Assembly (NCBI GenBank): GCA_046757405.1
Contig: JBHHYE010000010.1
Location: 19,386-83,385, forward strand
DNA length: 64,000 bases
DNA from: Acidobacteriota bacterium
Lineage (GTDB): Bacteria > Acidobacteriota > Polarisedimenticolia > SMYD01
Direction of reading: 5' to 3'
The notes under the pieces were generated by a model. That model worked only from the letters and a program-made list of their open reading frames with translations, did not search any database and was not told where the DNA came from. A program made the position numbers and the translations under genes. Shown here in pieces: positions 19,313 to 63,934 of the stretch (within the stretch, counting starts at the first letter, position 1; each line of letters begins with the position of its first letter).

Positions 19313-19318
19313 CCGGCC

Positions 19319-48668: not shown

Positions 48669-48768
48669 TCAGGCATCTCGGATGTCCCGCATTCGACCGG
48701 GTGGGATGCCAGAAAGCCATGCGGGACAAGGGCTTTCGCTTTCAAGCTAACATGGCTTCGCCGGCGCG

Positions 48769-49629: not shown

Positions 49630-49837
49630 CGGCATTCTTCCCCAGTCATAATAGATAAGAGGCGTTACCTGGAAGTTCAAGTCAACCGGAGACGGGGCGC
49701 ATGGGGGCCTGGAAGCCTCTCCAGTAGCTTGAATCATCTAACGGTCGTGTTTGCAATAGGTTACAGGACGCCTTCGTTCCTGTGCAGGTTGTAGAAACCG
49801 TTTTCAGTTCAGATATTTCGCTGCCTGGAACACAACT

Positions 49838-51067
49838 TTGTCACAGGGTTTTCCACATTCTCTGCGGATCGCTGGACGGTGCACCGGTTCGAGTGGCGGA
49901 CGGCGGGATCGATGGTGGGCCGTGAAGGGAGGCAGCGGACCGTGTATCCTGTCGGTCGAACGGTTTGCTTCCCTGTCGACAAGGAGATCGGCGCTGCGCC
50001 GCAGTTGGCTCCTATCCCGTCCCCTGGCCGGGTTCGTCGCCGGCCTGATCTTGGTGCCCGTCGGCGCTCGGAGCGCCCCGGCTGGAGTGCGGTCCCGCAC
50101 CGTGCATCTGGTCTACGAGGCCCGCGTACCCGGCGTCCCGGCGACGGCCGGGGAGGCGTTCCTGTGGATCCCATACCCGCCTGGCACCGCTTACCAGACG
50201 GTCAGCCACGTGACCATCAGCCCGGGACTGGCCCACGAGCTGGTCACCGAGGCACGTTTTGGCAACCGTGCCCTGCGGTTTGACCTGCCGCCAGGCACAG
50301 GGACGGCCACCGTCCGTCTCGGCTTCGATGTGACCCGGCGCGAGCACCGGCACCGTTTCGGAAAGGGCGGCGGCGAAGCGGAGGGATCGGTGACGGCCCT
50401 CCTGGGAGGAACCGGACCGGAGGAGACGGCGGTCTGGTTGCAGCCGGATCGGAGAGTGCCCCTGGATGCAACCATTCGCGGCTGGGCGGCTGCGGCTGTC
50501 GCCGGCCGCACCACTCCACTCGGCCAGGCACGGGCGATCTACGACTATGTGGTCGACAACCTCCGCTACGACAAGACCGGCACCGGCTGGGGGAACGGAG
50601 ACATCTACTGGGCCTGCGACACCAAGCAGGGCAACTGCAGCGATTTTCATGCGGTGTTCATCGGCTATGCGCGCGCCGTCGGGATCCCGGCGCGTTTCGA
50701 GATCGGCCTCCCCCTGCCGCCCGGCCGCGCCTCGGGGGAGATCAGCGGCTACCACTGCTGGGCGGAGTTCAACCTCCCCGGAGAGGGATGGATCCCTGTG
50801 GATGCCTCGGAAGCGAACCAGCACCCCCGCCTGCGAGATTATTTTTTCGGGGCGCATGACGAGAACCGGGTGCTGTTCACCGTTGGCCGGGACCTGATGC
50901 TGCCCGGGATGCGGGATGCGCCGTTGAACTTCTTTATCGCCCCGTACGCCGAAGTGGACGGGAAAGCGTTCCCCGGAGTGACGGGTCGCTTTTTCTACCA
51001 GGAGATCGGCCCTTCCGTTTCCCAGGACCGCCCCGGAGGGGGCCGGCGCTCAGGGGGAGGCGGCTGA
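49838..51067 (+). CDS. Transglutaminase-like (TGc) cysteine protease-fold protein, secreted (possible Tat signal)
   Basis: Cys-His-Asp core 'GNCSDFHAVFIGYARAVGIPAR..GYHCWAEF..WIPVDAS'. N-terminal 'TRRSALRRSWLLSRPLAGFVAGLIL'. Start uncertain (TTG 49838 or GTG 49922). Confidence 0.65.
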   Translation: MSQGFPHSLRIAGRCTGSSGGRRDRWWAVKGGSGPCILSVERFASLSTRRSALRRSWLLSRPLAGFVAGLILVPVGARSAPAGVRSRTVHLVYEARVPGVPATAGEAFLWIPYPPGTAYQTVSHVTISPGLAHELVTEARFGNRALRFDLPPGTGTATVRLGFDVTRREHRHRFGKGGGEAEGSVTALLGGTGPEETAVWLQPDRRVPLDATIRGWAAAAVAGRTTPLGQARAIYDYVVDNLRYDKTGTGWGNGDIYWACDTKQGNCSDFHAVFIGYARAVGIPARFEIGLPLPPGRASGEISGYHCWAEFNLPGEGWIPVDASEANQHPRLRDYFFGAHDENRVLFTVGRDLMLPGMRDAPLNFFIAPYAEVDGKAFPGVTGRFFYQEIGPSVSQDRPGGGRRSGGGG

Positions 51068-52966
51068 GAGGCGCTGCAGGGCCGTCCGGGCCGCCGTGGA
51101 GCCCGGTGCGAGCTCCAGGGCGCGGCGGTAGGCGGAGATCGCCAGGTCGCGGTCCCCGCGGGCCTCGGCCCACCGCCCGCGGAGGAGCCAGGCTCGCCCG
51201 TCCGCCGGGCTTCTCTGCACGGCCCAGTCGAGCTCGGTCTTGGCTTGCGCCAGGCGGCCTTCCTGGATGAGAACCTCCGCCAGGTTCAGCCGGATGACGG
51301 CCTCCCCTCGCTGTCCTTTCCGGAGAGCCGTCTGGAACGCCTTGATAGCCGCCTCCGGTCGGCCGGACCGGGAATAGGCCAGGCCCAGGTTGCTCCAGGT
51401 GGCGGCGCTGTGGGGGTCCAGACGCGCGGCTTCCTCGAGCTCGCGGATCCCCTCATCGACCTGGCCCCCCTGCACCAGGAGACGGCCCAACCCCTCATGC
51501 GCCATGGCCAGGGCCGGATCCAGGGCGAGAGCGCGAATGTAGAACGGGCGGGCCTCGGTCCACCGGCCCTGCCGCACCATCATCTGGCCGATCCAGGCGG
51601 AACCGAACGCCGAGTCGGGTTCGTCGTTCTCTCCACGGTCCACACCCGGGGAATCCAGCGCCACCGGGTGGATCCCTTCCCTCCCCCAAAAGGCTTTCTG
51701 GACCGCTGGCAGCAACAGCTCCACGATCCGCCGGTTCCCAGCCGCCGTCGGGTGGCAGTAGTCGAGAATCATCTCGTCGCCGACGATTCCCCCGGGCGAG
51801 GCGGCGGCCAGTGTGGCGGCCGCGTCCAGCGGCTCCAGGGCCGCTTCGCGCCACTCCCGGCGGATGGCGTCGGAGAGGAAGCCGGGCATGCGGATGGGCA
51901 CTCCGTCTCGGTCACGGGCCTCGGCGTAGGCGGCGCGCGCCGCGGAAAACCGGCCCATGGCATCCAGGATCTGTCCGCGGAGATAGTGGGCCGTAGCCGG
52001 CAGCGGATCGAGGCGCAAGGCCTCGTTGACCGCCCGCAGGGCGCCGGGCCACTGTCCCCGGGAGAACAGGGACCGGGCGGCGCTCATCGCCTTGTTCCGC
52101 CGTTGCTGGGCGAGGCGAGCCAGCGTCTCCGACCAGTCGGAGCCTTCCGGCGCCCAGCCGCGCAGGTTGGAAGCCGGGTTGACCAGGAAGAGGGAGATCC
52201 CGGCATGGCGTGCCAGCTCGGCGATCTCGCGCAGGACGAAGAGGAATTGATCCTTGATCAGGCGATCCTCCTGCGGATCGCGGTGTTGGCGCAGGCTGTC
52301 ATCTCGTTCCACGCCAAAGAGCCCGCCCGGTGCTTGATGGCCCCGGGCGGCCAGCGGCTGCAAGGCTCTCCTCAGGGCCGCGTACAGCCGCAGCCGGTTC
52401 AAGGCGCCGCGGAGATGGCGTTTCCAATCGGGCTCGTTCAGGAACGGGGCGAAGAAGCGGCGCTCGACGTACTCGTTATGGCCCATGTAGACCACGAGTC
52501 CATCCGGCTGGTACCGGATGACCTCCCGGGCCAGATTCAGAATTCTTCGTGAGCCATACGACATTCCGCCGCAGTTGATGACCTCGACCGGTGCTTCGGG
52601 ATGGGCCTTCTGGAGGGCCCGTTCCAGGAGACGGCAGAAAGAATGCGCGTCATCGTAAGGAAAGCCGAACGTCGCGGAGCCTCCCAGGCAGAAGAGACGC
52701 CGGGTCCGGGCCGCCTTGCGGGCGTGGAACGATTGCGGGTTGAAGGCACCGATCCGATCGTCGCGGGTTCGCAGGATCTCTTCCCCCCCTGCGCCGGTGG
52801 TATGAACAAACAGGGGCTCGGCGGCGGAAAAGCCGGCGAACGGATCGGGTCGATGGCCGGGACCGCCGTACCCCGCGAGCCGCAGGGCCACTTCGGCCGC
52901 CAGCAGAAGGCTCGATCCCAGGGCCAGAGCCAAGAGCCGCCGCGACGATCTGGACCCGATGCGCAA
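51050..52966 (-). CDS. SGNH/GDSL-like hydrolase domain + C-terminal TPR-repeat protein
   Basis: Probable TTG start 8 nt after the serS stop (the ORF-track ATG at 53185 would overlap serS by 210 nt); N-terminal TM anchor; 'FCLGGSATFG' GDS-like motif; 6 or more TPR repeats at the C-terminus. Confidence 0.55.
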   Translation of the reverse strand: MRIGSRSSRRLLALALGSSLLLAAEVALRLAGYGGPGHRPDPFAGFSAAEPLFVHTTGAGGEEILRTRDDRIGAFNPQSFHARKAARTRRLFCLGGSATFGFPYDDAHSFCRLLERALQKAHPEAPVEVINCGGMSYGSRRILNLAREVIRYQPDGLVVYMGHNEYVERRFFAPFLNEPDWKRHLRGALNRLRLYAALRRALQPLAARGHQAPGGLFGVERDDSLRQHRDPQEDRLIKDQFLFVLREIAELARHAGISLFLVNPASNLRGWAPEGSDWSETLARLAQQRRNKAMSAARSLFSRGQWPGALRAVNEALRLDPLPATAHYLRGQILDAMGRFSAARAAYAEARDRDGVPIRMPGFLSDAIRREWREAALEPLDAAATLAAASPGGIVGDEMILDYCHPTAAGNRRIVELLLPAVQKAFWGREGIHPVALDSPGVDRGENDEPDSAFGSAWIGQMMVRQGRWTEARPFYIRALALDPALAMAHEGLGRLLVQGGQVDEGIRELEEAARLDPHSAATWSNLGLAYSRSGRPEAAIKAFQTALRKGQRGEAVIRLNLAEVLIQEGRLAQAKTELDWAVQRSPADGRAWLLRGRWAEARGDRDLAISAYRRALELAPGSTAARTALQRLSAASP

Positions 52967-52974
52967 GGTGGAAT

Positions 52975-54231
52975 CTAGAGCTCCCGGCGCCCGCCCAGGT
53001 AGGGCTGGAGAGCGGGCGGGATCCCGATCCCGCGGCTCTCTTGCTGGTGGTTCTCCAGCAACGCGATCATCATGCGGCCTGCGGCAACCGCCGTGCCATT
53101 CAGCGTGTGCACCAGGCGGGTTCCCGACTCCCCTCGCAAGCGGACGGCCAGGCGGCGCGCCTGGTAGTCCGTGCAGTTGGAGCACGAGGTGACCTCCCGG
53201 TAGGCACTCTGGCCGGGCATCCAGGCTTCCAGATCAAATTTCTTGGCGGCCGGGGCGCCCAGGTCGCCGGTGGCAATGTTCACCACCCGGTAGGGAATGT
53301 TCAGAGCTTGCAGGATCTGTTCCTGGAGGGCCAGCATGACTTCATGCTCGCCGGGGGAGGTCTCCGGAGCACAGAATGAAAACATTTCGACCTTGTCGAA
53401 CTGATGGACGCGGAAAATACCCCGGGTGTCCTTGCCATAGGAGCCGGCTTCCCGCCTGAAGCAGGTGGAGAATCCGGCGTAGCGACGCGGCAGCTCGTCC
53501 GCGGCCAGGATCTCATCCATGTGCAGAGCCGCAAGGGAGACCTCTGATGTGCCCACCAGGTAGGCGTCCTCGTTTTCGATCTTGTAGATCTCGTTGCGGT
53601 CGGCCGGGAAAAAGCCGGTCCCGTACATCGCCTTCTCCCGCACCAGGACGGGAGGGAGCACCGGGCGGAATCCATTTTTCTTGAGGCGGTCCATGACGAA
53701 CGACACCAGGGCAAGCTCAAGGTCCACCAAATCGCCGGACAGATAGGCAAAACGGCTCCCCGAGAGCCGGGCCGCGCGCTTCATGTCGATCCAGCCGCGG
53801 GACTCCCCCAGGGCGAGATGATCGAGTGGCTCGAACCGGAAGGAAGGCGGCTCACCCACGCGGCGGAGCACGATGTTCGCCGTCTCCCCTTCTCCATCGG
53901 GCGCCGAAGGGTCGGGAGGGTTCGGGATTTGGACCAGCGCCGCCTGCAAAGCCTCTTCCAGCGAACGGAGTCGCGGCTCCCCTTCCTTGAGTTGCCCGGC
54001 GACCTCACGCATCCGGGCCATGAGCCCGGCCTTCTCGCTCTCTGCCGCCTGCGGGATGCGCCTGGAGGTTGCGTTCCTCTCGGCTCTCAAGGTCTCGAGC
54101 CGCGACTTGAGCCGGCGGATCTCCCCATCCAGTTGAAGAAGCTCATCCAGCCGTTCCGCTTGGTATCTCTTCCGCCCCAGGGAGACCCGGAAGGTCTCCG
54201 GGTCGTCGCGAAGTTTCTTGAGGTCGATCAT
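52975..54231 (-). CDS. serS: Seryl-tRNA synthetase
   Basis: N-terminal coiled coil, class II motifs 'GTGFFPADRNEIY', 'FRREAGSYGKDTRGIFRVHQF', 'SNCTDYQARR'. Confidence 0.95.
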   Translation of the reverse strand: MIDLKKLRDDPETFRVSLGRKRYQAERLDELLQLDGEIRRLKSRLETLRAERNATSRRIPQAAESEKAGLMARMREVAGQLKEGEPRLRSLEEALQAALVQIPNPPDPSAPDGEGETANIVLRRVGEPPSFRFEPLDHLALGESRGWIDMKRAARLSGSRFAYLSGDLVDLELALVSFVMDRLKKNGFRPVLPPVLVREKAMYGTGFFPADRNEIYKIENEDAYLVGTSEVSLAALHMDEILAADELPRRYAGFSTCFRREAGSYGKDTRGIFRVHQFDKVEMFSFCAPETSPGEHEVMLALQEQILQALNIPYRVVNIATGDLGAPAAKKFDLEAWMPGQSAYREVTSCSNCTDYQARRLAVRLRGESGTRLVHTLNGTAVAAGRMMIALLENHQQESRGIGIPPALQPYLGGRREL

Positions 54232-54734
54232 GTGCGCTTGCCCAGCAACTGCTCCACCTTGAGGAGCAGGTTCTCCTCCACGTGCATCCCCTTGATGAGG
54301 ACATCATCGGCGCCCAGCGCTTTCAGCTCCTTCCACGTTTCACCGTACATCTCCGCCTCGTCGAGGGCGGTGAAGATGAGGATGGGACACTGTTTGGCCC
54401 CCATCTCGCGGAGGACATCCCGGCCGTCATCGTCTCCACGGAGGGAAAGATCCAGCAGGAGCAGTTCGATCGGTTCCCGCTTCAGAACAGCCACGGCTTC
54501 TGCCTTGGAGGAGACCACGATGGTCCGGTAGCGGCTCCCCAGGGTGGCACGGACCAGCTCGCAAAAGTATGCCGTGTCTTCAGCCACCAGGATGGTCGGG
54601 GTGCTGGACGATCGAGTTTCCTGCACGGCCGGAGCGGTCTCCTTGCCGGTCTCCGTCGTCAGCTGGTGGCCGCCGGGTCCACAGACGATCTGGAGGAGGT
54701 GGCCACAGGCGGGGCAGAGGGCGTGTTCTCCCAT
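54228..54734 (-). CDS. Zinc-ribbon + receiver (REC) domain protein (second copy of this architecture)
   Basis: 'CPACGHLL..' N-terminal ribbon; REC 'ILVAEDTAYF', 'LLLLDLSLRGDDDGRDVL', 'ILIFTA', 'LIKGM'; 4-nt overlap with serS. Confidence 0.55.
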   Translation of the reverse strand: MGEHALCPACGHLLQIVCGPGGHQLTTETGKETAPAVQETRSSSTPTILVAEDTAYFCELVRATLGSRYRTIVVSSKAEAVAVLKREPIELLLLDLSLRGDDDGRDVLREMGAKQCPILIFTALDEAEMYGETWKELKALGADDVLIKGMHVEENLLLKVEQLLGKRT

Positions 54735-54777
54735 GGAATCTCCGCAAGGTCTTGCAAGACTTGACCTTAGTGTAGAA

Positions 54778-54807
54778 TTGACAGGTCTCCTCAGGCAACA
54801 TTACCAT
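54778..54807 (+). promoter_or_regulatory. Candidate promoter (TTGACA-17/18-TACCAT) for the membrane/TPR gene
   Basis: Consensus -35 at 54778-54783; weak -10. Lies downstream of a perfect 12-bp palindrome, GTCTTGCAAGAC (54749-54760). Confidence 0.3.
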
Positions 54808-54841
54808 CGCACGTCCGGCGCGTGAAAGGAGCCAGCCTCCT

Positions 54842-57800
54842 GTGAGCCCAGTGGGAAGTGCCACCAGTCGGGGCCGCCTGGCGAGCGTGGCTGGAGGATT
54901 CCTTCTCTCCTCTCAGACCGTGGCCTGGAGCCTGGTGGCTTCACCTCTCGGGGCGGGTGACCTGGGGATGGGCCTCTTGTTCGTGGCCGCGGCGACCTTG
55001 ACGCTGGGAGCCACCCTGTCCGCAAGGCCCGGAGCGGGAAGCTGGCGCCGCGGCCTGTTCCTGCTCCCGGCACTCGCCGGACTCCTGGCTCTGGCGGCGG
55101 CGTCCGCGCTTCTCGCCCTCCCGTCCTTCGGAACCGGCTCTGCCATGGCCCGGTTCTTGGCCTCGGCTGTGGTCGTCGGGCCCGCCGGGTTGTGTGGGGG
55201 AATTCTTCTCAGCCAGAGAGGTGTCCCGCCGGCCGGGTTCTTCCTCGGCCTCCTGTCAGGGGTATCCCTGGTGCTGGGAACCGTTTCCTGGTGGCCGCCG
55301 CCGCTGGCCCTGGCGGGGCTTCCCGTTGTCTGGCTGGGGTTGGCCCCGCGCCCGGCCGTCTCACAGGGCGAGCCCGGGGCCCGGGGACCATCAGGCGGTC
55401 GACCCTCCTTCCCTCTGCTCCAGGCCATGATGATGAGCGCGGCCTTGCTGACTCTTGTGCTGGGCGCCATGGGACGGATCACACGGCTTCTGGCCGGGAC
55501 CTCCTACCAGACTCGTTCGATTCTTTTCTTCCTCACCCTCGGCGGGTTGGTGGTGGGAGGTCTCGTGGGGGGCCGGTTCCGGCCGCGAGGCTCCTCTCGC
55601 CTGCTCGCCGCGGCGGTGGTTTGGAGCGTGCTGGCTGCCCATCTGTTGGCGCTCTTCTGGAGCCTCCCTTCCCTTGCCAGGCTGTATCTCCGGGTGATCG
55701 ATCCGCATGTCTGGCCTTCCATGCCGGGCGCGTGGCTCCTCGGCGGCCTCATGCTCTTTCCGCTGGCCGCCCTGGGTGGGCTGGGGATCAGCTGGATGAC
55801 CCCCGCCCCGGACCCGGAGGGACGTCCCGGGGTGGCGGTGATCCAGGCGGTGGGTTCAGGAGTCGCCGCCGGTGCCGTTCTCCTGGGAGGCCTCCTGGCT
55901 CCCCACCTGGGTCCAGGGCGGCTCTTTCAGCTCTGCGTGGCCACGGTTCCCCTGGGCCTGGTCTTGCCCGCGGTGCTGGATCCAGGCGGGAGGAGCAGGG
56001 CCTGGCTCCGGCTGGGCGCCGCGCCGGTTGTGGTTCTTGTGAGCTTCGGTGTTCTTTTCCTTTCTGGACCGTCGGATCGTCTGTTGACGGCGGGTCTGGC
56101 CTGGCACCCGCAACGATTCCTCGTTTCCGGTGGTGAGGCGCTGGCCAACGGACTCGGACAGCAGCAGGTGGTCGGCTTCGAACCGCGGTCCACCGGGGTG
56201 GTGGCGCGGGTGCGGCGGGCCAGCGGGCCGGTCGAAACCGTCTGGCAGGGCTGGACACTGGCGACCGGCGGGGCTCACCCGCGGAGCTGCGCGGCGGTGG
56301 CGAGCCTGCTGGCCGCGGTGCTTCATCCGCATCCGGATCGTGTGCTGCTGGTCGGCGCGGACGGTGCCGCAGAGGTGGAGGGAGTCCGGGCGGTTCTACC
56401 CGGTGCCCGGGTCGATCGTTTCCGGAGTGTGCCGTTCGGACGCGGGGCCGCCGGCCCGGCGGCGGCCCCGAACAGGCGCCCGGGTCAGGCCTCTCTCTGG
56501 GCGGTGGGCACCGGGTACGACTTCGTGATGGTGCATCCACTTCCTCCCCAGGCCGCCGGCTCCGGGTTGGCCTGGAGCCACGCCGCTCTGGAGCGTGGCC
56601 GGCATGCGCTGGCCGCTGAGGGTGTCCTTTCCCTGCGGCTGGACCCGCAGTCCTTCAGGGCGCCGGCGTTCCAGACCGTCCTGTCCACATTCCTCGGTAT
56701 CTTTCCCGAAAGCAGCTTGTGGTTCGATGGATGTGATCTGCTTCTGGTGGGATCCGGCTCCCCGGTGCGGATTTCCATGACAGCTCTCGAGGAGTTGTTT
56801 GGAGCGGTGGCCCCTGAGGTCGAGGCGGCGGGATTGCTTCACCCTGCGGATCTTCTCGCCCGTTTCATCATGCCGCGCTGGGGATTGGAGGCGCTCTCGG
56901 AGGGCCGGCCCGCCGAACGGCTGTTCCGGCCCCGGCTGGCCCTGGAGCCTGACCCCGGGGTCGGAGAGAGGCGCGGCCTGCTGGCACGGTTCACCGTTTT
57001 CCCGCTGGATCTCAACGCCTGGCTGGCAGACCTGGCCGGACTCGACCCGGAGAGCCTGCGGGAGGACGTGGAAGGGACCTCCCGCGCCATCGGCCATCTT
57101 CTCGCGGCTCTGGGCCAGGAGACGGGCGATCCCGCGGCCGCCCTGGGGCATGCGCAGGCTGCTCTGGAGATGCGTCCAGAGGATCCGCTGATTGCCCGGG
57201 TCACGGCGCGGCTCGCCTATGCCGCTGCCCGGTCGGACCTGGCGGTGGGAAAGGACCAGGCGGCCCTGGAGTGGATGGAGCAGGCGATCCGGCTGGCTCC
57301 GGAGCAGGTCACCTATCACCTGTTGCACGTTCATCTCCTGGAGGGTCTCGGCCACCTAGAAAGTGCCCGGCGCCGGCTGGACGCGCTGGGAAGGCGTTTT
57401 CCCGATTCCTACCCGGTGCTGCTTCTCCAGGGGCTCTGGCGGATGAATCGTGGCAACACCAAGGGGGCCGGCAAGTTCCTGCGCCGGGCGGCCGACCTGG
57501 GGTACGAGACCGCCGACCTGGATGTGGGACTGGCACGGATCGCGTGGGCGCGCCGCCGGCCGGAGGAAGCCCGCCGGCTGGTGCGGCGGGCCGCGAAGCG
57601 AGCCCCCGACCCTCCAGGCCTCATGGCCCACCTGGGAGAACAGTTGCTGCGGGCGGGCTTCCTGGAGGAGGGTGTGGAGTACCTGGAGCGGGCCAAGGAG
57701 AGAGGGCGCGACGCGGCCGATGTCAACGGGCCGCTGGGAGAGGCGGCTCTCGAAGGGCAGGACTACGTCCGGGCTTCCCGGTTGCTGTCCCGCGCCGTGG

Positions 57801-58090
57801 CCCAGGAGCCCGCCTCAGGCCGGTTCCGCCTTTCCCTGGGCAGTGCCCTGCTCCTTTCCGGAAACGCCATGCAGGCCGTGGAGCACCTGCGCAAGGCGGT
57901 TGGCCTCCGGCCGGACGACGCCATGGCGCACCTCAACCTGGCCGCAGCGCTCTTGAAGTCGGGCCAGAAGAACGAGGCGCGCGAGGAGCTCGCGATCATC
58001 GGAACGCGCCTGGAGGGAAATCCGGTCCTCGCCCGTTTGCGGCGGGAGCTCGGGTTGCGCCCTCCCGAAGGGGACGCCGGCCCCCTGTGA
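54842..58090 (+). CDS. Large polytopic membrane protein with spermidine-synthase-like (aminopropyltransferase/MTase fold) domain and C-terminal TPR repeats
   Basis: About 12 TM helices in the first ~480 aa; 'VLLVGADGAAE..GYDFVMVHPLPP' MTase-like region; TPR array from ~aa 780. Confidence 0.55.
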   Translation: MSPVGSATSRGRLASVAGGFLLSSQTVAWSLVASPLGAGDLGMGLLFVAAATLTLGATLSARPGAGSWRRGLFLLPALAGLLALAAASALLALPSFGTGSAMARFLASAVVVGPAGLCGGILLSQRGVPPAGFFLGLLSGVSLVLGTVSWWPPPLALAGLPVVWLGLAPRPAVSQGEPGARGPSGGRPSFPLLQAMMMSAALLTLVLGAMGRITRLLAGTSYQTRSILFFLTLGGLVVGGLVGGRFRPRGSSRLLAAAVVWSVLAAHLLALFWSLPSLARLYLRVIDPHVWPSMPGAWLLGGLMLFPLAALGGLGISWMTPAPDPEGRPGVAVIQAVGSGVAAGAVLLGGLLAPHLGPGRLFQLCVATVPLGLVLPAVLDPGGRSRAWLRLGAAPVVVLVSFGVLFLSGPSDRLLTAGLAWHPQRFLVSGGEALANGLGQQQVVGFEPRSTGVVARVRRASGPVETVWQGWTLATGGAHPRSCAAVASLLAAVLHPHPDRVLLVGADGAAEVEGVRAVLPGARVDRFRSVPFGRGAAGPAAAPNRRPGQASLWAVGTGYDFVMVHPLPPQAAGSGLAWSHAALERGRHALAAEGVLSLRLDPQSFRAPAFQTVLSTFLGIFPESSLWFDGCDLLLVGSGSPVRISMTALEELFGAVAPEVEAAGLLHPADLLARFIMPRWGLEALSEGRPAERLFRPRLALEPDPGVGERRGLLARFTVFPLDLNAWLADLAGLDPESLREDVEGTSRAIGHLLAALGQETGDPAAALGHAQAALEMRPEDPLIARVTARLAYAAARSDLAVGKDQAALEWMEQAIRLAPEQVTYHLLHVHLLEGLGHLESARRRLDALGRRFPDSYPVLLLQGLWRMNRGNTKGAGKFLRRAADLGYETADLDVGLARIAWARRRPEEARRLVRRAAKRAPDPPGLMAHLGEQLLRAGFLEEGVEYLERAKERGRDAADVNGPLGEAALEGQDYVRASRLLSRAVAQEPASGRFRLSLGSALLLSGNAMQAVEHLRKAVGLRPDDAMAHLNLAAALLKSGQKNEAREELAIIGTRLEGNPVLARLRRELGLRPPEGDAGPL

Positions 58091-58174: not shown

Positions 58175-58573
58175 CTACGGTTGGCTCCTGAACAGGCGGG
58201 AAAACCAGCCGAGGAGGCCGCTCTTGGGGAGGCTCGTGCGGGCCATTTCGGGGCCATCCATGCCGGGCGGCGGGGAATCCGTGGGTGGCGTGGATGCGGG
58301 AGTGGCGGGAGAATCGGACAGGCGCGTCTCGTGGCTCAGTTCGAAGAGGGAGGGCCCGGGGTCGGTGTGGAGGGCGATGGGAGGTATCTGGAAGAGAAGG
58401 TCGCCGCCGGCGGGGATCGCAAGAGGATGCTTTTCCCGGGCCGTGGAAGTCCCACGGGGCGGGATGAACAACATGGTCCCGCATCGGGGGCAGGGTGTCC
58501 GTGCCCCCCGCGCCGGGAGGCGCTCCTCGCGAACGCGAAAGCCAGCCTGGCAGGAAGAACATCGTATGGTCAT
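58175..58573 (-). CDS. MJ0042-type zinc-ribbon protein with disordered middle and C-terminal amphipathic helix
   Basis: 'IRCSSCQAGFRV..TPCPRCGTML'; Pro/Ser/Thr-rich region; terminal 'SGLLGWFSRLFR'; ATGA overlap with the upstream gene. Confidence 0.5.
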   Translation of the reverse strand: MTIRCSSCQAGFRVREERLPARGARTPCPRCGTMLFIPPRGTSTAREKHPLAIPAGGDLLFQIPPIALHTDPGPSLFELSHETRLSDSPATPASTPPTDSPPPGMDGPEMARTSLPKSGLLGWFSRLFRSQP

Positions 58574-59634
58574 CGGTTGGTCCTCCCTTCTTCAGCTCGG
58601 TGTGGCGGGACGCCCTGGGTCAGGCCGCTGATGGCTTCGTCAAGCCCCAGCTTTCCATCCAGGTATGGATTCCAGTAGGCCTCCAGCGCCGGCAGAAAGG
58701 CTTGGAAAGCACGCTGATAAATCTTCCGGGTCTTCCCCACGTGCACATGGGAGAAATCGACCATTCTGCGGACGGCCTCCCCGGCGGTCCAGTAAAGCAC
58801 CGCACGGGGCAACAAGGCCGGGTTCATCGGATGCAGCTCCCTCTGGCGCTGGCGCAAGAGGAGGAGGGCGTTGTTGTGATTTCCCTTGTCGGCAAGCTCG
58901 ATGATGCGTCCGAGCATCATGACGATGGTTTCCGTGAGGCCCGTGGCCGTGAAACGATCGGTCTCGATGACGGTAAAGAACTTCCCGTCGACTTCCTGGG
59001 CGTCGGAGCCGGTCAAGACATAGCGGCCGACCAGGTCGATCTTCACCCGGTGGAGGGGAAGGAGCCGGGCGTTGAGGCTGGTGAAGAGGAACTGGAGGAG
59101 CTCTTCCTGATGCGGATAGAACAGGTTCCGGAGGACCGGTTTCACCGTGGTGGAGTTTCGCAGGGCCAAGGCCGGCCAAATCCTCGTCTCGAAGAATGGA
59201 TAGGCTTGCTCCATGGCCGCGGCAATATCGCTGCCGGTCTTTCCCAGGGCGAGCATCTTGTACTTCAGAGGAAACATGTTCAGCTGACCCTTGACCGAGG
59301 AGATATCCCGGGCGCGTGCGATGAAGCTTTCCATCCTGAACCAGATCCTCGGATCAGGCACGAGTTTTTGGTGATGCCGGTACAGGCGAACCGACTCGGC
59401 GAGTTCAGGGGGCAGATCCTTCTTTCTTGACGCTGCCACCCGCAGATGAGTGTGCAAGCTGAGAATCTTGTTCAAGGAAAGATCGATCTTGAGATCCCTG
59501 GGGCCCACCAGACGGCTGGCCCCCCGGGCAGCTGTCCAGAGGAGGAGCGGAATGGACCCTGACATCGCCAGGCGTGGGAGGGCCAGAAGCCATGATCGGC
59601 GCAGGAATTCCCTGCGGGGGTAGACCAGCCTCAT
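58570..59634 (-). CDS. Hypothetical protein (354 aa), possibly secreted
   Basis: Start at 'MRLVYP'. Strong GC3 bias (18/20 third positions GC in a sampled 60-nt stretch); N-terminal 'RRSWLLALPRLAMSGSIPLLLW'; no recognised domain. Confidence 0.55.
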   Translation of the reverse strand: MRLVYPRREFLRRSWLLALPRLAMSGSIPLLLWTAARGASRLVGPRDLKIDLSLNKILSLHTHLRVAASRKKDLPPELAESVRLYRHHQKLVPDPRIWFRMESFIARARDISSVKGQLNMFPLKYKMLALGKTGSDIAAAMEQAYPFFETRIWPALALRNSTTVKPVLRNLFYPHQEELLQFLFTSLNARLLPLHRVKIDLVGRYVLTGSDAQEVDGKFFTVIETDRFTATGLTETIVMMLGRIIELADKGNHNNALLLLRQRQRELHPMNPALLPRAVLYWTAGEAVRRMVDFSHVHVGKTRKIYQRAFQAFLPALEAYWNPYLDGKLGLDEAISGLTQGVPPHRAEEGRTNR

Positions 59635-60467
59635 GCTGGACCGCGGGCGTCGGGGGAGGCGAACGGCGCGGGAGCGCTCCGGGGTGGGGAGACGCTTTTC
59701 TTCAGGGTGAGTCCGAAATAGCCGGAAAGATCCGGCGGGTGGAGGAGCGAGAGACGGACCCTGCTCTGGCGGCCCACCCGGGAATCCGCCAGGCGAACCG
59801 GGCGGAGAATACGCGCGGATCCGTTGGGCGCCTGCGGCCGCGGAAGCGCACGCCGGCTGTCCTCGATGCAAATGCTCCAGGTCCCCCTGTACGGTTGCCG
59901 CTCCGGGTGGATGGCACCCACGTGCTCGCCCAGCTGCTCATGCGAGCCGCCCGCTTCAAGGAGCGCCGCCTGGATGATTTCAGGCGATAGAAAAGGATGG
60001 CGGTGAATCGGTGGGAGCAGGAACTCCAGGTGAATATCCAGAGACGGCTCATGGCCGCGGACGGTCTCGCCTTCAGCCAGGAGTGCGGCGGCGAACGGTT
60101 GCACCGAACCGGGCGTCAGATAGGACGGGTTATTCCGGGCGGAGCCTCGCGCCATCGCATTCAGGACGTCGGATTCATCCAGCCAGCCGCCGGCGGCGCT
60201 GGAAATGAGGCACCGGCACAGTCCAGATGCTTTCTTGCCGGCGCGGCCCAGGGACCAGCACCATTCCAGGAGCGGCCAGAGCCCCTGCGTGTTTTCCACC
60301 TTGGCCTGGCGAGGGTCCTGGGAGGCACGAAAAAACCGCGCCAGGAATCGTGGGATCTGGTCGACCCTGTCCAGGCGCGCCCCCTCCCCTTCAACCGTTG
60401 GCATCCCGTTTCGCATGAGCGGTTCGTGTGACGCGTTGAGAACAGAGAATTTTATCAGACCCTGCAC
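59631..60467 (-). CDS. Dubious hypothetical ORF (278 aa)
   Basis: Co-oriented with its neighbours and has an ATGA overlap, but sampled GC3 is only ~50-70% versus ~90% in neighbouring genes; an overlapping plus-strand ORF (59997-60431) scores similarly. Confidence 0.25.
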   Translation of the reverse strand: MQGLIKFSVLNASHEPLMRNGMPTVEGEGARLDRVDQIPRFLARFFRASQDPRQAKVENTQGLWPLLEWCWSLGRAGKKASGLCRCLISSAAGGWLDESDVLNAMARGSARNNPSYLTPGSVQPFAAALLAEGETVRGHEPSLDIHLEFLLPPIHRHPFLSPEIIQAALLEAGGSHEQLGEHVGAIHPERQPYRGTWSICIEDSRRALPRPQAPNGSARILRPVRLADSRVGRQSRVRLSLLHPPDLSGYFGLTLKKSVSPPRSAPAPFASPDARGPA

Positions 60468-60509
60468 CGGCGTGAGAAAAAAAACCGGTGAACGAACCGT
60501 GACAGCGGC

Positions 60510-62126
60510 TCATTCCCGGGCATCGGGATGGTCAGGAGGCGAGGGGTCCAGGCGCATGGTCAGGGTGCATCTTATGGATTTCCCGTCGGTTTCGATGCAG
60601 AGAGGGACCTGAATCTGTTTCCCGGCCCGGAGGGTTGCCACGTGCCCTTCCCCGGAGGATGGGCGGGACTCCAGCAGTGTGGGTCCGGCCAGCCCCGTGG
60701 CGGGACCCTGATGGGCGGGGAGGGCCTCGAGATCCGTCTCTGCCGCCAGGGCCCGGGTGACCCCCTGCCGGCTTTGCTGGTCCGCCAGGAAAGATTCCAG
60801 CGAGAAAGCTTCGGTCTTCTCCTGGTGTCCCACCGCGGCGCCGGCCGCATCAGGATTGAAGAAGGGCGACTCGAGCGTGGAGGGGAGATCAGAGCTGGCG
60901 GTAGACGGGGTTCCATCCGGGCCGGCGCCCGCTCTGCCTGCATCCTCCGGACCCTCGCCGGTGCCGGCGGCGGTGAGTGGGCTTTCCTGGACAGCACCCG
61001 GTGAATCGTCCGGCGCATCCACCATCTCCTCGAAGGCGCCGGACACGTCATCCGGATCGAGGTCGGTGGAGGGTAAGTCGGGAAAAAAGGTGGGCTCGGG
61101 TTGTGGGGTGCGGATGGAGGGCTCGACCGACGCGAAGGTTGCCTCCGCCCCCCGGCCGGTGGACGGATCGGTCCGCGGCGTGTCGAGAAGAACGTCTTCC
61201 CTTTTTTCCGGAGGGGGGTCCATGGCGGCCGCCACCGGGACCCGTACGGAGTCATCTCCATCGAAGCCGTCGACTTCTTCCAGAAGTCCTTGGATTTCCT
61301 CCGCATCCATTCTATCGAGTTCCTCTTCCAGGTCTCCTTCGTTCCAGCCGATTGGAGCGGCGGTGGCCGCCGAGGGCTGGGAACTCGCCGCCCGTGGCGA
61401 GAGATCCGCGGCGGGGAACGGTTCTCCGGAGTCCGAGCTCACCGGGAGGGACACCGCCCGGGCGGGCGGTGTTTCCGGGGCCGGGACCTGGGGTGACCGG
61501 GGTCGCCGGGCGGCTTCCTTGTTTCCCCCCTTCTGTTGGCCGTATTGCCCGGACAGGGAGAGCAGGACGAGCTTGCTGATGGCCTTGAGAGTGTCCTGGA
61601 CGCCGATTCCGGTGGTCGCGATCACCTCGTAAAATGGAGAGTTGTACCGGTTCAGGGCGGCGTTCATTTCCTCGATGGTCTGAATGGAAGGAAGGTCTCT
61701 CTTGTTGAACTGGAGCACCAGCGGGATCCTAGCGAGATCCGCGCCATGTTCCTTGATGTTTTCTTCCAGATTGCGATACGACTCGAGATTGGCGTCGGCC
61801 ATCTGGATCTGCGAATCGGCTACGAAGACGATCCCGTCGACTCCCTTCAGGACCATCTTACGGGTCTCGTTGTAAAACACCTGGCCGGGCACGGTGTAGA
61901 GCTGGACCCTGGTCTTCATTCCCCTGATGTCACCCAGTTCCACAGGCAGGAAATCGAAGTACAAGGTTCGGTCGGTCTGGGTCGAGAGAGACAGCATCCG
62001 GCCCCGCTTGTCGGCCGCCAGGTTGTCATAGATGAACTGCAGGTTGGTGGTTTTTCCGCACAGTCCTGGGCCGTAATAAACGATCTTTGCTGTCAACTCC
62101 TTGGTGGAGTAATTAAACAGGACCAT
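60510..62126 (-). CDS. mglA: MglA-family Ras-like small GTPase with ~340-aa acidic, disordered C-terminal extension
   Basis: 'KIVYYGPGLCGKTTNLQFIY' (P-loop), 'TDRTLYFDF', 'YTVPGQ' (MglA-type G3), 'NKRDL'; then a D/E/P/S/T-rich low-complexity region to aa 538; GGAAGGTG RBS. Confidence 0.8.
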   Translation of the reverse strand: MVLFNYSTKELTAKIVYYGPGLCGKTTNLQFIYDNLAADKRGRMLSLSTQTDRTLYFDFLPVELGDIRGMKTRVQLYTVPGQVFYNETRKMVLKGVDGIVFVADSQIQMADANLESYRNLEENIKEHGADLARIPLVLQFNKRDLPSIQTIEEMNAALNRYNSPFYEVIATTGIGVQDTLKAISKLVLLSLSGQYGQQKGGNKEAARRPRSPQVPAPETPPARAVSLPVSSDSGEPFPAADLSPRAASSQPSAATAAPIGWNEGDLEEELDRMDAEEIQGLLEEVDGFDGDDSVRVPVAAAMDPPPEKREDVLLDTPRTDPSTGRGAEATFASVEPSIRTPQPEPTFFPDLPSTDLDPDDVSGAFEEMVDAPDDSPGAVQESPLTAAGTGEGPEDAGRAGAGPDGTPSTASSDLPSTLESPFFNPDAAGAAVGHQEKTEAFSLESFLADQQSRQGVTRALAAETDLEALPAHQGPATGLAGPTLLESRPSSGEGHVATLRAGKQIQVPLCIETDGKSIRCTLTMRLDPSPPDHPDARE

Positions 62127-62170: not shown

Positions 62171-63517
62171 TCAAGCGCGAACCTTGCCGGTTCGTGGCCG
62201 GCGTGGTCTCCGGCGGTCGCGCAGGGAGAGGCGGATGGGTGTTCGCAGAAGCTCCATGTGGCGCCGCAGACGGTTTTCCATGTAACGGCGGTAAGGCTCG
62301 GGAAAGCGGCTCCCGTGGCTGGCGAAAATGGCGAGATGCGGGGGGGAGGAGTCGATCTGGACGGCGTAGTGCAGCTGCATGGGGTGGCCGTCCACCATGG
62401 GAGGGCGGCGGTGCTGGACCACGTGGCGCAAGGCTTTGTTCCAGCTGGAGGTGGACCGGCGTGCCGTGAAGTCCTGGTAGCTTCGGCGGGCCTCGGCGAG
62501 GATCCTGGAAACACCGAGGCCCGTCCGGGCGGAGGTGGCCAGCAGCGTCTTGTACGGCGCGAACGACAGCTTTTCGGATGCGGAGCGGCGGCGGAGGTCG
62601 CCGGCTCCGGCGGGAACCAGGTCCCACTTGTTGAGGACGGGCACGATGGCCCTTCCGGCAGCGAGAACTTCGCTGCCGACAGCCAGATCGCCGCGGGTCA
62701 CACCGGTGCTGGCGTCCATGACCAGCACCGCGATCTGGCCGCGCGCAAGAGCGCGGCGTGTTTGCTCCATGGCCAGGCTTTCCGGCATCTCGGCTCCCGG
62801 GTGATGCCGCAGGCCGGCCGTGTCCACCAGACGGAAGCGGGCACCGTCCGCTTCGAGCCGGCTGTCGACCGGATCGCGTGTGGTGCCCGGAGAGGTGGAG
62901 ACCAGGGACCGCTCCGTCGAGAGGAGACGGTTCAAGAGCGAGGACTTGCCCACGTTGGGCCGGCCGACCAGGGCCAGGGAGATCTCCAGGCGGTCGGGCT
63001 CCTCCCCTTCCCCGGTAGACGCCGGCAGGACGAAGGCGATGGCCTCTTCCAGTTCGTCAATGCCCAGAGCGTGGGCGGCCGAGATGGGAAGAACATGTTC
63101 CTGGCCCAGGGAGAAGAATTCCGCGGCCGCCGCTTGCGCGGCGAGGGTGTCCAGTTTGTTGACCACGATGATCGTGGGGCGATGGCAACGGCGCGCCAGG
63201 TCGGAAAGATGCTGATCCGTGGGCGTGAGCCCCACTCGTCCGTCGACCACCAGGAGGACGAGATGGGCTGTCTCCAGGGCCAAGCGTGCCTGGCCGCCCA
63301 CCAGGCGGGACATCTCTTCCCGGCTGTCCGGCAGGATGCCACCGGTGTCGACCAGCTCGACCTGGCGCCGGCCCAGGGAGGTGATCTGGGCGATCCGATC
63401 ACGGGTCATTCCCGGTTGGCGATGCACCAGGGCCCGGCGGCTGCCCGTCAGGCGGTTGAAGAGGGTCGACTTCCCGACATTCGGAGCTCCCACGATGGCA
63501 ACGGAACACAGGCTCAT
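62171..63517 (-). CDS. der: Ribosome-biogenesis GTPase Der (EngA), tandem GTPase domains + KH-like domain
   Basis: Start 'MSLCSVAIVGAPNVGKSTLFN'; second G domain 'LALVGRPNVGKSSLLN'. Confidence 0.9.
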   Translation of the reverse strand: MSLCSVAIVGAPNVGKSTLFNRLTGSRRALVHRQPGMTRDRIAQITSLGRRQVELVDTGGILPDSREEMSRLVGGQARLALETAHLVLLVVDGRVGLTPTDQHLSDLARRCHRPTIIVVNKLDTLAAQAAAAEFFSLGQEHVLPISAAHALGIDELEEAIAFVLPASTGEGEEPDRLEISLALVGRPNVGKSSLLNRLLSTERSLVSTSPGTTRDPVDSRLEADGARFRLVDTAGLRHHPGAEMPESLAMEQTRRALARGQIAVLVMDASTGVTRGDLAVGSEVLAAGRAIVPVLNKWDLVPAGAGDLRRRSASEKLSFAPYKTLLATSARTGLGVSRILAEARRSYQDFTARRSTSSWNKALRHVVQHRRPPMVDGHPMQLHYAVQIDSSPPHLAIFASHGSRFPEPYRRYMENRLRRHMELLRTPIRLSLRDRRRPRRPRTGKVRA

Positions 63518-63606: not shown

Positions 63607-63667
63607 TGACCGTAACCCTTTTGTCATTAGTCAGTTAGATACTATAGTCCAAGCGGAGGGGTTGGCC

Positions 63668-63934
63668 ATGATCAAGGCAGACATCATCGACAAAGTGGCT
63701 CGGAACGCTGATATCACCAAGGTCAAGGCCGTTCAGGCTGTTGAGGCGGTCCTCGACGCCATGAAGGGCTCCATGAAGCGCGGTGAGCGGATTGAGCTGC
63801 GAGGGTTTGGGGTTTTCCAGGTCAAGCCGCGGAAGAAGGGAATCGGGCGTAACCCGCGCACCGGCCTGGAAGTTCTCATCCCTCCGGGGAAAACGATTCG
63901 TTTCAAGCCGGGAAAGAATCTGCGCAAGCTCTGA
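63668..63934 (+). CDS. Integration host factor / HU-family protein
   Basis: ATG 63668 after a GGAGGGG RBS (the track's TTG at 63662 is less likely). 'IELRGFGVFQVKPRKKGIGRNPRTGLEV'. Confidence 0.85.
   Translation: MIKADIIDKVARNADITKVKAVQAVEAVLDAMKGSMKRGERIELRGFGVFQVKPRKKGIGRNPRTGLEVLIPPGKTIRFKPGKNLRKL

Follow-up and report, generated by a model that had tools for sequence, protein, structure and literature searches.

Why does an MglA-type GTPase, in a family whose canonical members end at about residue 195, continue for a further 343 residues at a locus where no MglB is encoded nearby? The question arose from an earlier note on a 64,000-nucleotide stretch of Acidobacteriota DNA (assembly GCA_046757405.1, contig JBHHYE010000010.1, positions 19,386 to 83,385; hereafter the window), which described an MglA-family GTPase with a 340-aa acidic, intrinsically disordered C-terminal extension. 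The observation made in that note was confirmed: positions 60510..62126 on the minus strand form one intact ORF with an ATG start that encodes 538 aa plus the stop. We first asked whether the gene is real and the GTPase domain intact, then what the tail contains and who shares it, and finally what the tail may do.

An intact MglA switch in a genuine long ORF

The G domain (61542..62126, minus strand, aa 1-195) is an orthodox MglA. In a phmmer search against the PDB, residues 3-193 aligned without gaps, and with the same numbering, to the Myxococcus xanthus MglA structures 5ymx, 6h17 and 6hjh (E 2.5e-80 to 4.6e-80; about 68% identity) and to Thermus thermophilus MglA 3t12 (E 2.7e-62); 6izw is a further structure of this group-1 MglA. 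The P-loop GPGLCGKT at 19-26 (G19/G21/K25/T26), the arginine-finger loop 44-58 with R53/T54, the family-specific G3 motif TVPGQ at 78-82 (within LYTVPGQVFY, residues 76-85, with Thr78 in place of the usual Asp and the catalytic Gln82) and the G4 motif NKRD at 141-144 are all present. In an alignment of 113 sequences (A1), the P-loop, NKRD, T78, P80, G81 and Q82 are invariant, as are D52, R53, T54, L55, F57, D58 and F59 of the segment TDRTLYFDF; the role of the intrinsic arginine finger and of the Mg-binding T54 is described in PMC6876712. Among 150 representatives of 50% identity clusters, R53 and Q82 occur in 150 and G21 in 147. The residues that in M. xanthus form the pocket for the C-terminal helix of MglB (PMC6785124) are also retained, L64 and I67 being invariant and K181 and K185 at least 90% conserved in A1. 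GTP binding and hydrolysis, a nucleotide-dependent β2 register shift and a role in polarity or motility are inferred from this similarity alone.

High-GC DNA produces long spurious ORFs, several of which overlap this locus, and one could therefore assume that a frameshift or a lost stop merged a normal 195-aa mglA with downstream sequence, or that the tail is a separate, mis-merged gene. The earlier note had named a stop near residue 200, a mis-merged tail and an mglB just outside the window as outcomes that would count against it, and none of these was found, the last in a further 8 kb of the same contig. The same 1617-nt ORF, with the identical protein and gene call, is present on an independently assembled Logan contig (SRR29324609_8076) that is identical over 13,491 bp, and GC3 stays at 0.63-0.83 along the whole ORF. 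All six complete orthologues in Acidobacteriota/Polarisedimenticolia MAGs are 436-535 aa long, and the in-frame C-terminal hairpin and acidic helix motif described below are conserved at the protein level across hundreds of clusters, the latter in a much smaller share of them. About 10 of 264 extended database relatives do show Arg/Pro-rich ends typical of frameshifts, but for the locus under study the conservation data refute the artefact explanation, and we consider it all but excluded. We are correspondingly very confident that this is a genuine, conserved extended MglA.

Conserved elements in an otherwise variable tail

The linker (60636..61541, minus strand, aa 196-497) is predicted to be disordered, with AF2 pLDDT below 50 for most of its length. 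Residues 197-500 consist of A 14%, P 12.5%, E 9.5%, S 9%, G 9% and D 9%, with a net charge of -36; the composition is thus A/P/E/S/G/D-rich, slightly different from the D/E/P/S/T-rich tail in the earlier note. A search with the tail alone found only the protein itself, Pfam and NCBIfam searches of the tail returned nothing even at E up to 10, and alignment occupancy and conservation are low outside a few islands. The linker is too variable to find relatives, which had to be reached through the G domain, with about 6,500 hits.

The short ordered-looking segment that the note placed at the end of the ORF is a predicted β-element (60546..60635, minus strand, aa 498-527), comprising a short strand 498-500 and an amphipathic hairpin 504-513 / 516-525 (QIQVPLCIET-DG-KSIRCTLTMR). 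The pLDDT is 81-91 in the full-length model and 87-93 in an isolated 100-aa fragment, so that the confidence of the prediction does not depend on the G domain; however, this shows that the hairpin is self-consistent, not that it docks anywhere. P508 is invariant, L522 and L526 are nearly invariant, and the face formed by I505/V507/L509/I511 plus I518/C520/L522/M524/L526 is entirely hydrophobic. The pattern φxφPφxφ sits a median of 29 aa from the C-terminus in 183 of 262 relatives, and the alternating β pattern is found in 235 of 264 extended relatives (about 89%). A strict filter for amphipathic C-terminal helices found none, but inspection of the 29 exceptions showed that in 5-6 relatives the terminal β-element is replaced by a MinD/FtsA-like amphipathic helix, for example KKKGFFGGLFNKDK. 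A Foldseek search of the C-terminal model against the PDB gave no significant structural analogue (best E 0.46).

A second conserved element, which the earlier note did not describe, is an acidic amphipathic helix motif (island 1; 61263..61310, minus strand, aa 273-288, MDAEEIQGLLEEVDGF) with the consensus [F/M]xxxE-I-[D/E]-x-L-[V/L]-[D/E]-E-V-[E/Q/D]-[E/D]. In A1, E277 is conserved in 100 of 113 sequences, I278 in 91, L281 in 106, E284 in 101 and V285 in 101, and AF2 predicts a helix at 275-286 with pLDDT 61-72. The motif is shared by the wider clade of the protein under study, in which it scores 38.7 bits with a position-specific matrix; it exceeds the 99th percentile of the shuffled null in only 19 of 148 representative clusters, and therefore cannot be essential to the general design. 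A further short helix (60765..60800, minus strand, aa 443-454, within EAFSLESFLADQQS) is predicted in both AF2 models with pLDDT about 60 and is conserved as LTLESFLAE in the window's own subfamily (alignment A2).

The extended form is not a one-off but a large conserved subfamily, with hundreds of uncultured relatives that share the design. Of the best 150 representatives of 50% clusters 148 are at least 260 aa long, all of the best 120 90% clusters are 296-589 aa, and the two sets taken together are nearly all 250-885 aa, with the G domain at the N-terminus; essentially all close relatives maintain a tail of 100-700 aa. The members that could be assigned a taxon are Acidobacteriota, including Ca. 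Polarisedimenticolia. MAG bins that carry the gene include JASFRI01, DATEEA01, JBOGOC01, GCA_964511835 and the bin containing SRR29324609_8076. In the literature searched, no paper links MglA with Acidobacteriota or describes a C-terminally extended MglA. The survey of prokaryotic small GTPases by Wuichet & Sogaard-Andersen (PMC4316618) excluded sequences longer than 240 aa, which explains why this family is undescribed; this limit, which the 538-aa protein exceeds, is a size criterion of the survey and not a biochemical one.

A housekeeping locus without a nearby MglB

As the earlier note stated, der (EngA; 62171..63517, minus strand; TIGR03594, E 9e-130) lies directly upstream, with a gap of 44 bp, and the two genes are probably co-transcribed. 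A promoter-like site at 63668..63641 lies upstream of der. A terminator-like hairpin with a 10-bp stem and a T-run (60490..60515, minus strand) overlaps the stop codon of the extended mglA gene, but this is weak evidence, as the number of such sites in the region is not above the shuffled expectation. The adjacency to der is conserved in all 17 related loci compared (L001-L017; der is fragmentary in L012), and the gene sits in a stable housekeeping block and not in a motility locus.

We found no flanking Roadblock gene, again in agreement with the earlier note. Pfam scans of 47 predicted window proteins gave no Robl_LC7 match, tblastn and phmmer searches with verified M. xanthus MglB returned no hit, and none is present in a further 8 kb of the same contig beyond the window end. 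No Roadblock/MglB gene lies within ±10 kb at any of 12 loci with annotated or searched neighbourhoods. For the downstream neighbours without Pfam matches, hhalign against MglB gave probabilities below 0.2%, although these profiles are shallow (3-4 sequences). By the criterion of the survey, a Roadblock/LC7 GAP gene within four genes, the protein is an orphan, as are 59 of the 449 MglAs surveyed there.

These searches covered only a small fraction of each genome, and an ordinary MglA with a passive appendage might be considered, with MglB and perhaps RomR/RomX encoded elsewhere and the tail an entropic spacer or a tolerated low-complexity expansion. The retention of every catalytic, switch and pocket residue fits continued use of MglB-type regulators, Acidobacteria are reported to have canonical MglA/MglB and RomR homologues, and the linker sequence itself is not conserved. 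A response regulator with a RomR-like REC-linker-helix layout lies about 9 kb upstream; a search of NCBIfam, which contains no RomR model, returned only generic REC hits for it. The extended MglA is itself not a RomR, whose architecture is an N-terminal receiver domain, an unstructured linker and a Glu-rich helical RomR-C (PMC3441718): it has no Response_reg match, and only the composition of the linker is similar. Nevertheless, a functionless tail would not keep a precisely placed terminal hairpin across clusters that share less than 50% identity, nor a near-invariant 16-residue acidic motif, nor a maintained length, and we regard the passive explanation as unlikely.

A zinc-ribbon protein that the earlier note did not describe is a recurrent downstream neighbour. 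In the window it is a 132-aa MJ0042-type protein (58175..58573, minus strand; Pfam Zn_ribbon_4, E 7.7e-10; TIGR02098, E 7e-8) with a disordered middle and a C-terminal MinD-like amphipathic helix (SGLLGWFSRLFRSQP; hydrophobic moment 0.72), and zinc-ribbon-IDR-TM proteins are encoded immediately after the extended mglA in L001, L002, L003 and L007. Judged from sequence, these neighbours are membrane-bound, through TM helices or an amphipathic helix. Zinc ribbons of this type bind short helical motifs in disordered partners, as in ZitP-PopZ and in the binding of the GltJ ZnR to its linker and to the MglB Ct-helix (PMC11135422). The protein is a candidate partner; however, the functional link is inferred from gene order only, the neighbour is present at the loci of 5 of 15 distinct organisms and absent from the HEAT-type loci L009 and L012-L014, and in the window two unrelated genes and a terminator-like site separate it from the extended mglA.

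What the tail may do

The interpretation in the earlier note is supported in all its checkable parts: an MglA-family G domain with the TVPGQ motif, a disordered acidic extension of about 340 aa, a short ordered terminal element, der directly upstream and no flanking Roadblock gene. Our analysis establishes that the gene is a full-length member of a large, conserved and so far undescribed subfamily of group-1 MglA GTPases, that its switch residues are intact, and that a negatively charged chain predicted to be disordered carries two conserved elements, the acidic helix motif and the terminal hairpin. What follows on mechanism is inference, drawn from sequence and predicted structure. The G domain should cycle between GTP-on and GDP-off like M. 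xanthus MglA and should still need an MglB-like activator to place its own arginine finger. In our preferred reading, which we consider about as likely as not, the tail works as a flexible tether. The terminal hairpin cannot be stable alone in water and would be the docking or assembly end, holding the switch at a membrane-proximal or polar structure by binding a partner, by pairing with itself, or by lying on the membrane. The acidic helix would be a binding site for a second partner, candidates being the zinc-ribbon membrane protein or the basic α5 pocket of the G domain itself. MglA activity would then be confined to within one tether length of an anchor point, whereas in Myxococcus a freely diffusing MglA is positioned by separate polar landmark proteins. 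The replacement of the hairpin by amphipathic helices and the membrane-bound zinc-ribbon neighbours fit an anchor, but the former is seen in only 5-6 clusters, and amphipathic β-hairpins are not an established class of bacterial membrane anchor.

Several systems provide analogies. FtsZ shows the same design logic, a folded GTPase, a poorly conserved disordered linker of variable length and a short conserved C-terminal element that docks the protein to membrane-associated partners (PMC9586301; bioRxiv 10.1101/171280). There is no homology, however: FtsZ is a tubulin-like polymerising GTPase whose terminal helix/β-strand peptide binds FtsA, ZipA or SepF, whereas here a Ras-like core carries a 22-residue amphipathic β-hairpin with no identified target. 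In eukaryotic Ras/Rho/Rab proteins a G domain of the Ras superfamily is followed by a flexible hypervariable region whose lipid-anchored end fixes the switch to a surface (bioRxiv 10.1101/2024.04.25.591151). This too is analogy only; the present protein ends in PDHPDARE (LDPSPPDHPDARE) with no CAAX, CC or CXC motif and no cysteine in the last 18 residues, and its tail is about 10 to 30 times longer and strongly acidic rather than polybasic. Within the MglA family, SofG of M. xanthus and Bdellovibrio MglA are encoded without an adjacent mglB, and SofG is positioned by direct binding to the polymeric landmark BacP (PMC4316618; PMC4085708), a precedent for an MglA-type switch held at a fixed structure. 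SofG is, according to the earlier note, extended at the N-terminus. In the present protein Met1 aligns with MglA residue 1 (MVLFNYSTKE against MSFINYSSRE), and neither it nor its orthologues have an N-terminal extension. Bdellovibrio MglA has a P-loop substitution; in the protein studied here G19 and G21 are intact.

An alternative explanation is a built-in regulator, in which the acidic helix binds in cis to the pocket formed by L64, I67, K181 and K185, tuning nucleotide exchange or blocking MglB-type partners, so that this MglA would be partly self-regulating without a coupled MglB. In M. xanthus this pocket receives the D/E-rich C-terminal helix of MglB or the Glu-rich helix of RomR, and the α5 lysines are reported to be conserved specifically where the partner has a D/E-rich helix, for which the RomR helix can substitute (PMC6785124). 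The conservation of the pocket, the D/E-rich character of island 1 and the lack of a coupled mglB speak for this view. However, at the sequence level island 1 does not resemble the MglB Ct-helix beyond chance (position-specific matrix against composition-matched shuffles, p = 0.44), and its hydrophobic spacing differs. Basic residues at 181/185 are almost as common in relatives that lack island 1 (about 80% of 131) as in those that have it (17-18 of 19), so no specific co-variation is apparent. The restriction of island 1 to a minority of clusters also speaks against this explanation, which leaves the far more widespread hairpin unexplained and which we consider improbable.

A third possibility is a self-assembling hub, in which the hairpins pair with each other and the acidic chains form a polar matrix or condensate, MglA thereby forming its own landmark as PopZ does in Caulobacter, with the zinc-ribbon membrane protein in the part of ZitP. 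The layout is that of PopZ, an acidic recognition helix, an acidic Pro/Ala/Glu-rich linker and a terminal self-contained element, pairing would bury the hydrophobic face of the hairpin, and the MJ0042-type neighbour has the ZitP architecture. The tail is nevertheless not homologous to PopZ: the domain DUF2497, which matches PopZ itself (E 3e-24), matched none of 7 MglA tails even at E up to 10, and the matrices of the two tail islands scored on PopZ 1-104, with its N-terminal motifs, were not above shuffles (p = 0.07 and 0.38). In addition, the oligomerisation domain of PopZ is helical and PopZ has no GTPase, and a uniformly strong negative charge with few aromatic or cationic residues does not obviously favour self-association. 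We regard this explanation as improbable.

A more far-reaching reading, which is compatible with the data but improbable on present evidence, is that the extended MglAs are self-contained, tethered polarity switches. The hairpin would fix the protein to the membrane or to a polar scaffold, the acidic helix would act in cis on the allosteric pocket or recruit the zinc-ribbon protein, and together they would replace the separate MglB Ct-helix and RomR landmark functions of Myxococcus. This would be an independently evolved bacterial counterpart of the anchored eukaryotic small GTPases, and the normal form of MglA in a major soil and sediment phylum.

MglA is the model for how bacteria use a Ras-like switch to set cell polarity, and everything known about it comes from the 195-aa, MglB-coupled form. 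The present analysis reveals a second, abundant form, at least about 150 clusters at 50% identity and thousands at 90%, in which the same switch carries a long tail, predicted to be disordered, with conserved putative docking elements and has no adjacent GAP gene. If the tail proves passive, the result is still a useful annotation correction, as these proteins are currently labelled hypothetical or SRP receptor beta. If the tail tethers or autoregulates the switch, then the family provides two short conserved motifs whose receptors are yet to be identified, bears on how MglA-type GTPases are controlled where MglB is not coupled, and gives a simple bacterial example of positioning a small GTPase through a disordered C-terminal region, a principle so far associated with eukaryotic Ras, Rho and Rab.

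The MglA domain and the integrity of the reading frame

The gene for the C-terminally extended MglA (mglA-ext) is a single ORF of 538 aa that starts with ATG and occupies 60510..62126 on the minus strand of the window. Residues 3-193 align without a gap to the solved structures of Myxococcus xanthus MglA (5ymx, 6h17 and 6hjh; E 2.5e-80 to 4.6e-80) and to MglA of Thermus thermophilus (E 2.7e-62), whereas the next best PDB hits are eukaryotic Rab/Ras proteins at E around 1e-4. Pfam recognizes only a weak Ras match and NCBIfam only the generic small_GTP model. The family-specific features are all present with M. xanthus numbering: GPGLCGKT (19-26), the arginine-finger loop with R53/T54, TVPGQ (78-82), and NKRD (141-144). 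Beyond residue 195 the protein continues for 343 residues, and residues 197-500 have a net charge of -36. The observation made in the earlier note, an MglA-family GTPase with a long acidic C-terminal extension, is real, although the tail, described there as D/E/P/S/T-rich, is better described as Ala/Pro/Glu/Ser/Gly/Asp-rich.

The possibility that the extension is an artefact can be all but dismissed. A Logan assembly of run SRR29324609 contains a 24-kb contig that is identical to the window over 13,491 bp, and its independent gene call is the same 538-aa protein. GC3 remains at 0.63-0.83 along the whole annotated frame. Conservation is decisive: a scan of one genome per species found eight loci, all in Acidobacteriota MAGs (several of them Ca. 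Polarisedimenticolia), and every complete orthologue is long (436, 438, 454, 478, 534 and 535 aa). An exhaustive phmmer search of 1.84 billion cluster representatives gave 6,495 hits, of which 148 of the best 150 are at least 260 aa in length with the G domain at the N-terminus. The best 120 clusters at 90% identity are 296-589 aa, and their sources call them "hypothetical protein", "signal recognition particle receptor subunit beta" or "MglA". The ranking favors long proteins, because the low-complexity tail adds score; it therefore shows abundance, not the fraction of all MglAs that are extended. Database lengths for this family are sometimes too short, as some members in public assemblies, about ten database relatives in addition to the one in locus L012 (L012:9234-10789, P0220), are split or end in Arg/Pro-rich sequence. 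In L012, 296 aa are followed directly by a 221-aa ORF. These cases look like frameshift errors in high-GC contigs.

Conserved elements in the C-terminal tail

The tail alone finds no homologue but itself among 5.8 billion proteins, which is typical of a fast-evolving disordered linker. In an alignment of 113 relatives, however, three elements stand out. The first, island 1 (aa 273-288, MDAEEIQGLLEEVDGF), has the family consensus [F/M]xxxE-I-[D/E]-x-L-[V/L]-[D/E]-E-V-[E/Q/D]-[E/D]; E277, L281, E284 and V285 are each conserved in at least 100 of the 113 sequences, and the motif is an acidic amphipathic helix with hydrophobic residues at i, i+3, i+4 and i+7. Island 1 has a narrower distribution among the relatives at large, scoring above the 99th percentile of a shuffle null in 19 of 148 representative clusters. 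The second element is a short helix, aa 443-454, which is conserved as "LTLESFLAE" in the window's own subfamily. The third is a terminal element, aa 498-527, in which P508 is invariant and L522 and L526 are nearly invariant.

AlphaFold2 with this alignment gives a folded G domain and a pLDDT below 50 for most of the tail. Helices are predicted at 263-271/275-286 (pLDDT 61-72) and 443-454 (about 63), and a β-hairpin is predicted at 504-513/516-525 with pLDDT 81-91, the highest in the protein. When the C-terminal 100 aa are modeled alone, the hairpin is retained at pLDDT 87-93, with a third short strand at 498-500. The element is therefore self-consistent and does not depend on the G domain for its confidence. 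One face of the predicted hairpin is wholly hydrophobic (I505, V507, L509, I511, I518, C520, L522, M524 and L526), the other is polar or charged, and such a hairpin must bury the hydrophobic face against something.

Across the relatives that were retrieved, φxφPφxφ lies a median of 29 residues from the C-terminus in 183 of 262, and an alternating φxφxφxφ pattern occurs in the last 40 residues of 235 of 264. Of the 29 exceptions, about ten have the Arg/Pro-rich ends typical of frameshifted high-GC assemblies, and five or six end in MinD/FtsA-like amphipathic helices (…NKGFWGNLFGRQK, …KKKGFFGGLFNKDK, …KKQFFLFRWLFRRG, …DGFWARRIFDI, …QSWFSKKIFRL).

Genomic context

The gene der (TIGR03594, E 9e-130) ends 44 bp upstream of the start codon of mglA-ext, and a divergent HU gene precedes der. 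A promoter-like site lies upstream of der (63641..63668, minus strand), a terminator-like hairpin overlaps the mglA-ext stop codon (60490..60515, minus strand), and another promoter-like site precedes the next gene (60449..60478, minus strand). Together these suggest that der-mglA-ext is a separate transcription unit, but the evidence is weak, as terminator-like sites are not more frequent than in shuffled sequence. The order HU(-) - der - (BrkB) - mglA-ext recurs in 16 of the 17 loci (L001-L017); locus L007 begins just upstream of der, so that no HU gene is seen there. The gene sits inside a stable housekeeping block, nadC-birA-coaX … der-mglA-ext … scpA-scpB-rluB-rpsA-HU-miaB-BFN-parA, which the window shows in reverse. 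The long part of this block at 39588..49737 (parA-parB, BFN nuclease, miaB, HIT, HU, rpsA, aminotransferase, rluB, scpB, scpA and a cNMP-binding/FHA protein) keeps its order across distant Acidobacteriota, as seen in comparison with L009, L013, L014 and L017. In the window, TPR, transglutaminase, serS and receiver genes (49838..58090) lie between it and the mglA-ext locus.

No Roadblock/LC7 gene was found within ±10 kb at any locus whose neighborhood was annotated or searched. Pfam scans of 47 predicted window proteins found none, tblastn and phmmer with M. xanthus MglB, a query verified against PDB 6h5b_B, gave only noise, and profile comparisons of the three conserved downstream families without Pfam matches against MglB gave probabilities below 0.2%. 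Only a small part of each genome is covered by these searches, and Acidobacteria are reported to have canonical MglA/MglB and RomR homologues. The first half of an alternative explanation, that this is an ordinary MglA with MglB elsewhere in the genome and a passive tail, thus cannot be excluded. The second half is hard to reconcile with the conserved motifs, and we consider this explanation as a whole unlikely. On the same contig, about 9 kb upstream of mglA-ext and just beyond window position 64000 (L011:566-1327), we find a 253-aa protein made of REC, a Pro/Glu/Asp-rich linker, and a helical C-terminal region containing a Trp (RRRLWELEAD); it also occurs in L015 and L016. This is the layout described for RomR, although profile searches, which included no RomR-specific model, gave only generic receiver hits.

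In L001, L002, L003 and L007, the gene immediately after mglA-ext encodes one or two MJ0042-type zinc ribbons, a disordered region, and transmembrane helices. In the window, a 132-aa zinc-ribbon protein (58175..58573, minus strand) lies two genes further on. It is made of an MJ0042-type zinc ribbon, a Pro/Ser/Thr-rich disordered middle, and a C-terminal MinD/FtsA-like amphipathic helix (SGLLGWFSRLFRSQP); its ATG overlaps the stop of the upstream ORF, and it has a weak N-terminal match to GltJ. In L009 and L012-L014 there is no zinc-ribbon gene, and a HEAT-repeat protein and a cNMP-binding/FHA protein follow instead. The two ORFs between mglA-ext and the zinc-ribbon gene in the window (59631..60416 and 58570..59634, both on the minus strand; 261 and 354 aa) have no Pfam or NCBIfam match and are conserved only in the window's own subfamily (L015 and L016; 45-51% identity). 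The 354-aa protein starts with a Tat-like RREFLRRS signal and is probably periplasmic. The DNA at 58550-59450 has a lower GC content (0.58-0.60) than its surroundings (about 0.68), which could mean a lineage-specific insertion.

A receiver-domain response regulator at 54228..54734 (minus strand) has an N-terminal CxxC segment, and its orthologue in L016 (L016:18250-18912) is a clear MJ0042 zinc ribbon fused to REC, an unusual pairing; the window protein lies next to a 1082-aa TPR membrane protein (54842..58090, plus strand). A chemosensory gene cluster at 14386..24795, about 36 kb from mglA-ext and not linked to it, contains two receiver proteins (14386-15339 and 15343-15825), a CheA-CheW fusion (15832-17859), a 735-aa protein with seven HEAT repeats (19319-21526), CheB (22392-23528) and another receiver (24265-24795). 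Elsewhere in the window, an 808-aa protein with two LptF_LptG matches (36000..38426, minus strand) appears to be a fused LptF-LptG permease, which is usually encoded by two separate genes, and a 1019-aa protein (32931..35990, plus strand) combines an SPFH/Band-7 segment, a type I phosphodiesterase/sulfatase domain, and many TPR repeats.

The switch, its proposed tether, and related systems

By sequence, the G domain is an orthodox group-1 MglA. R53 and Q82 are present in all 150 representatives and G21 in 147, and the arginine-finger loop is invariant. Structural work shows that MglB acts by repositioning this loop (PMC6876712). The switch is therefore predicted to be hydrolysis-competent and is probably still GAP-dependent, with a GAP that is not encoded nearby. 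The pocket that receives the MglB Ct-helix (L64, I67, K181 and K185; PMC6785124) is conserved here, and the tail supplies a conserved D/E-rich helix, so that one could assume regulation in cis by the tail. However, island 1 is not similar to the Ct-helix beyond chance (p = 0.44), the pocket lysines are nearly as conserved in relatives without island 1, and the idea leaves the hairpin unexplained. This explanation is unlikely.

We read the tail as a tether, that is, a long, acidic, non-conserved linker whose conserved end would be a docking or assembly element. This reading is suggested by the selective conservation of position and pattern at the extreme C-terminus, the hydrophobic face of the predicted hairpin that must be buried, the occasional replacement of the hairpin by a classical membrane-targeting helix, and the membrane-bound zinc-ribbon neighbors. 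Zinc ribbons of this type bind short helical motifs in disordered partners: ZitP binds PopZ, and the GltJ zinc ribbon binds its own linker and the MglB C-terminal helix (PMC11135422). That makes the acidic helix a plausible docking site. The analysis establishes the conserved architecture; every step beyond it, including GTP hydrolysis by the switch and any interaction of the tail, is inferred from sequence, predicted structure, and gene order alone, and we consider the tether-and-anchor mechanism about as likely as not. A PopZ-like self-assembling hub would also fit the layout and the ZitP-like neighbor, but homology to PopZ was tested and not found, and the uniformly acidic chain does not obviously self-associate; we regard this possibility as unlikely.

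The protein belongs to the MglA family by sequence but fails two operational criteria of the reference survey of prokaryotic small GTPases, namely a length of 240 aa or less and coupling to mglB. That survey lists only two acidobacterial MglAs, of 194 and 196 aa. Full-text searches, which did not reach many subscription papers and whose silence is thus not proof, found no paper linking MglA with Acidobacteriota or describing a C-terminally extended MglA. The nearest analogies are architectural, not evolutionary: FtsZ, with its GTPase core, disordered linker, and docking peptide; the eukaryotic Ras/Rho/Rab proteins, with a hypervariable region plus anchor; and SofG, an orphan MglA paralogue captured by the bactofilin BacP.

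The interpretation given in the earlier note is thus supported, but the protein is not unique. For the study of bacterial polarity, the points of interest are what the hairpin and the acidic helix bind and whether these organisms lack MglB. While the mechanism is still hypothetical and the switch domain itself is conventional, the protein represents a large, conserved, and apparently undescribed architectural variant of MglA.
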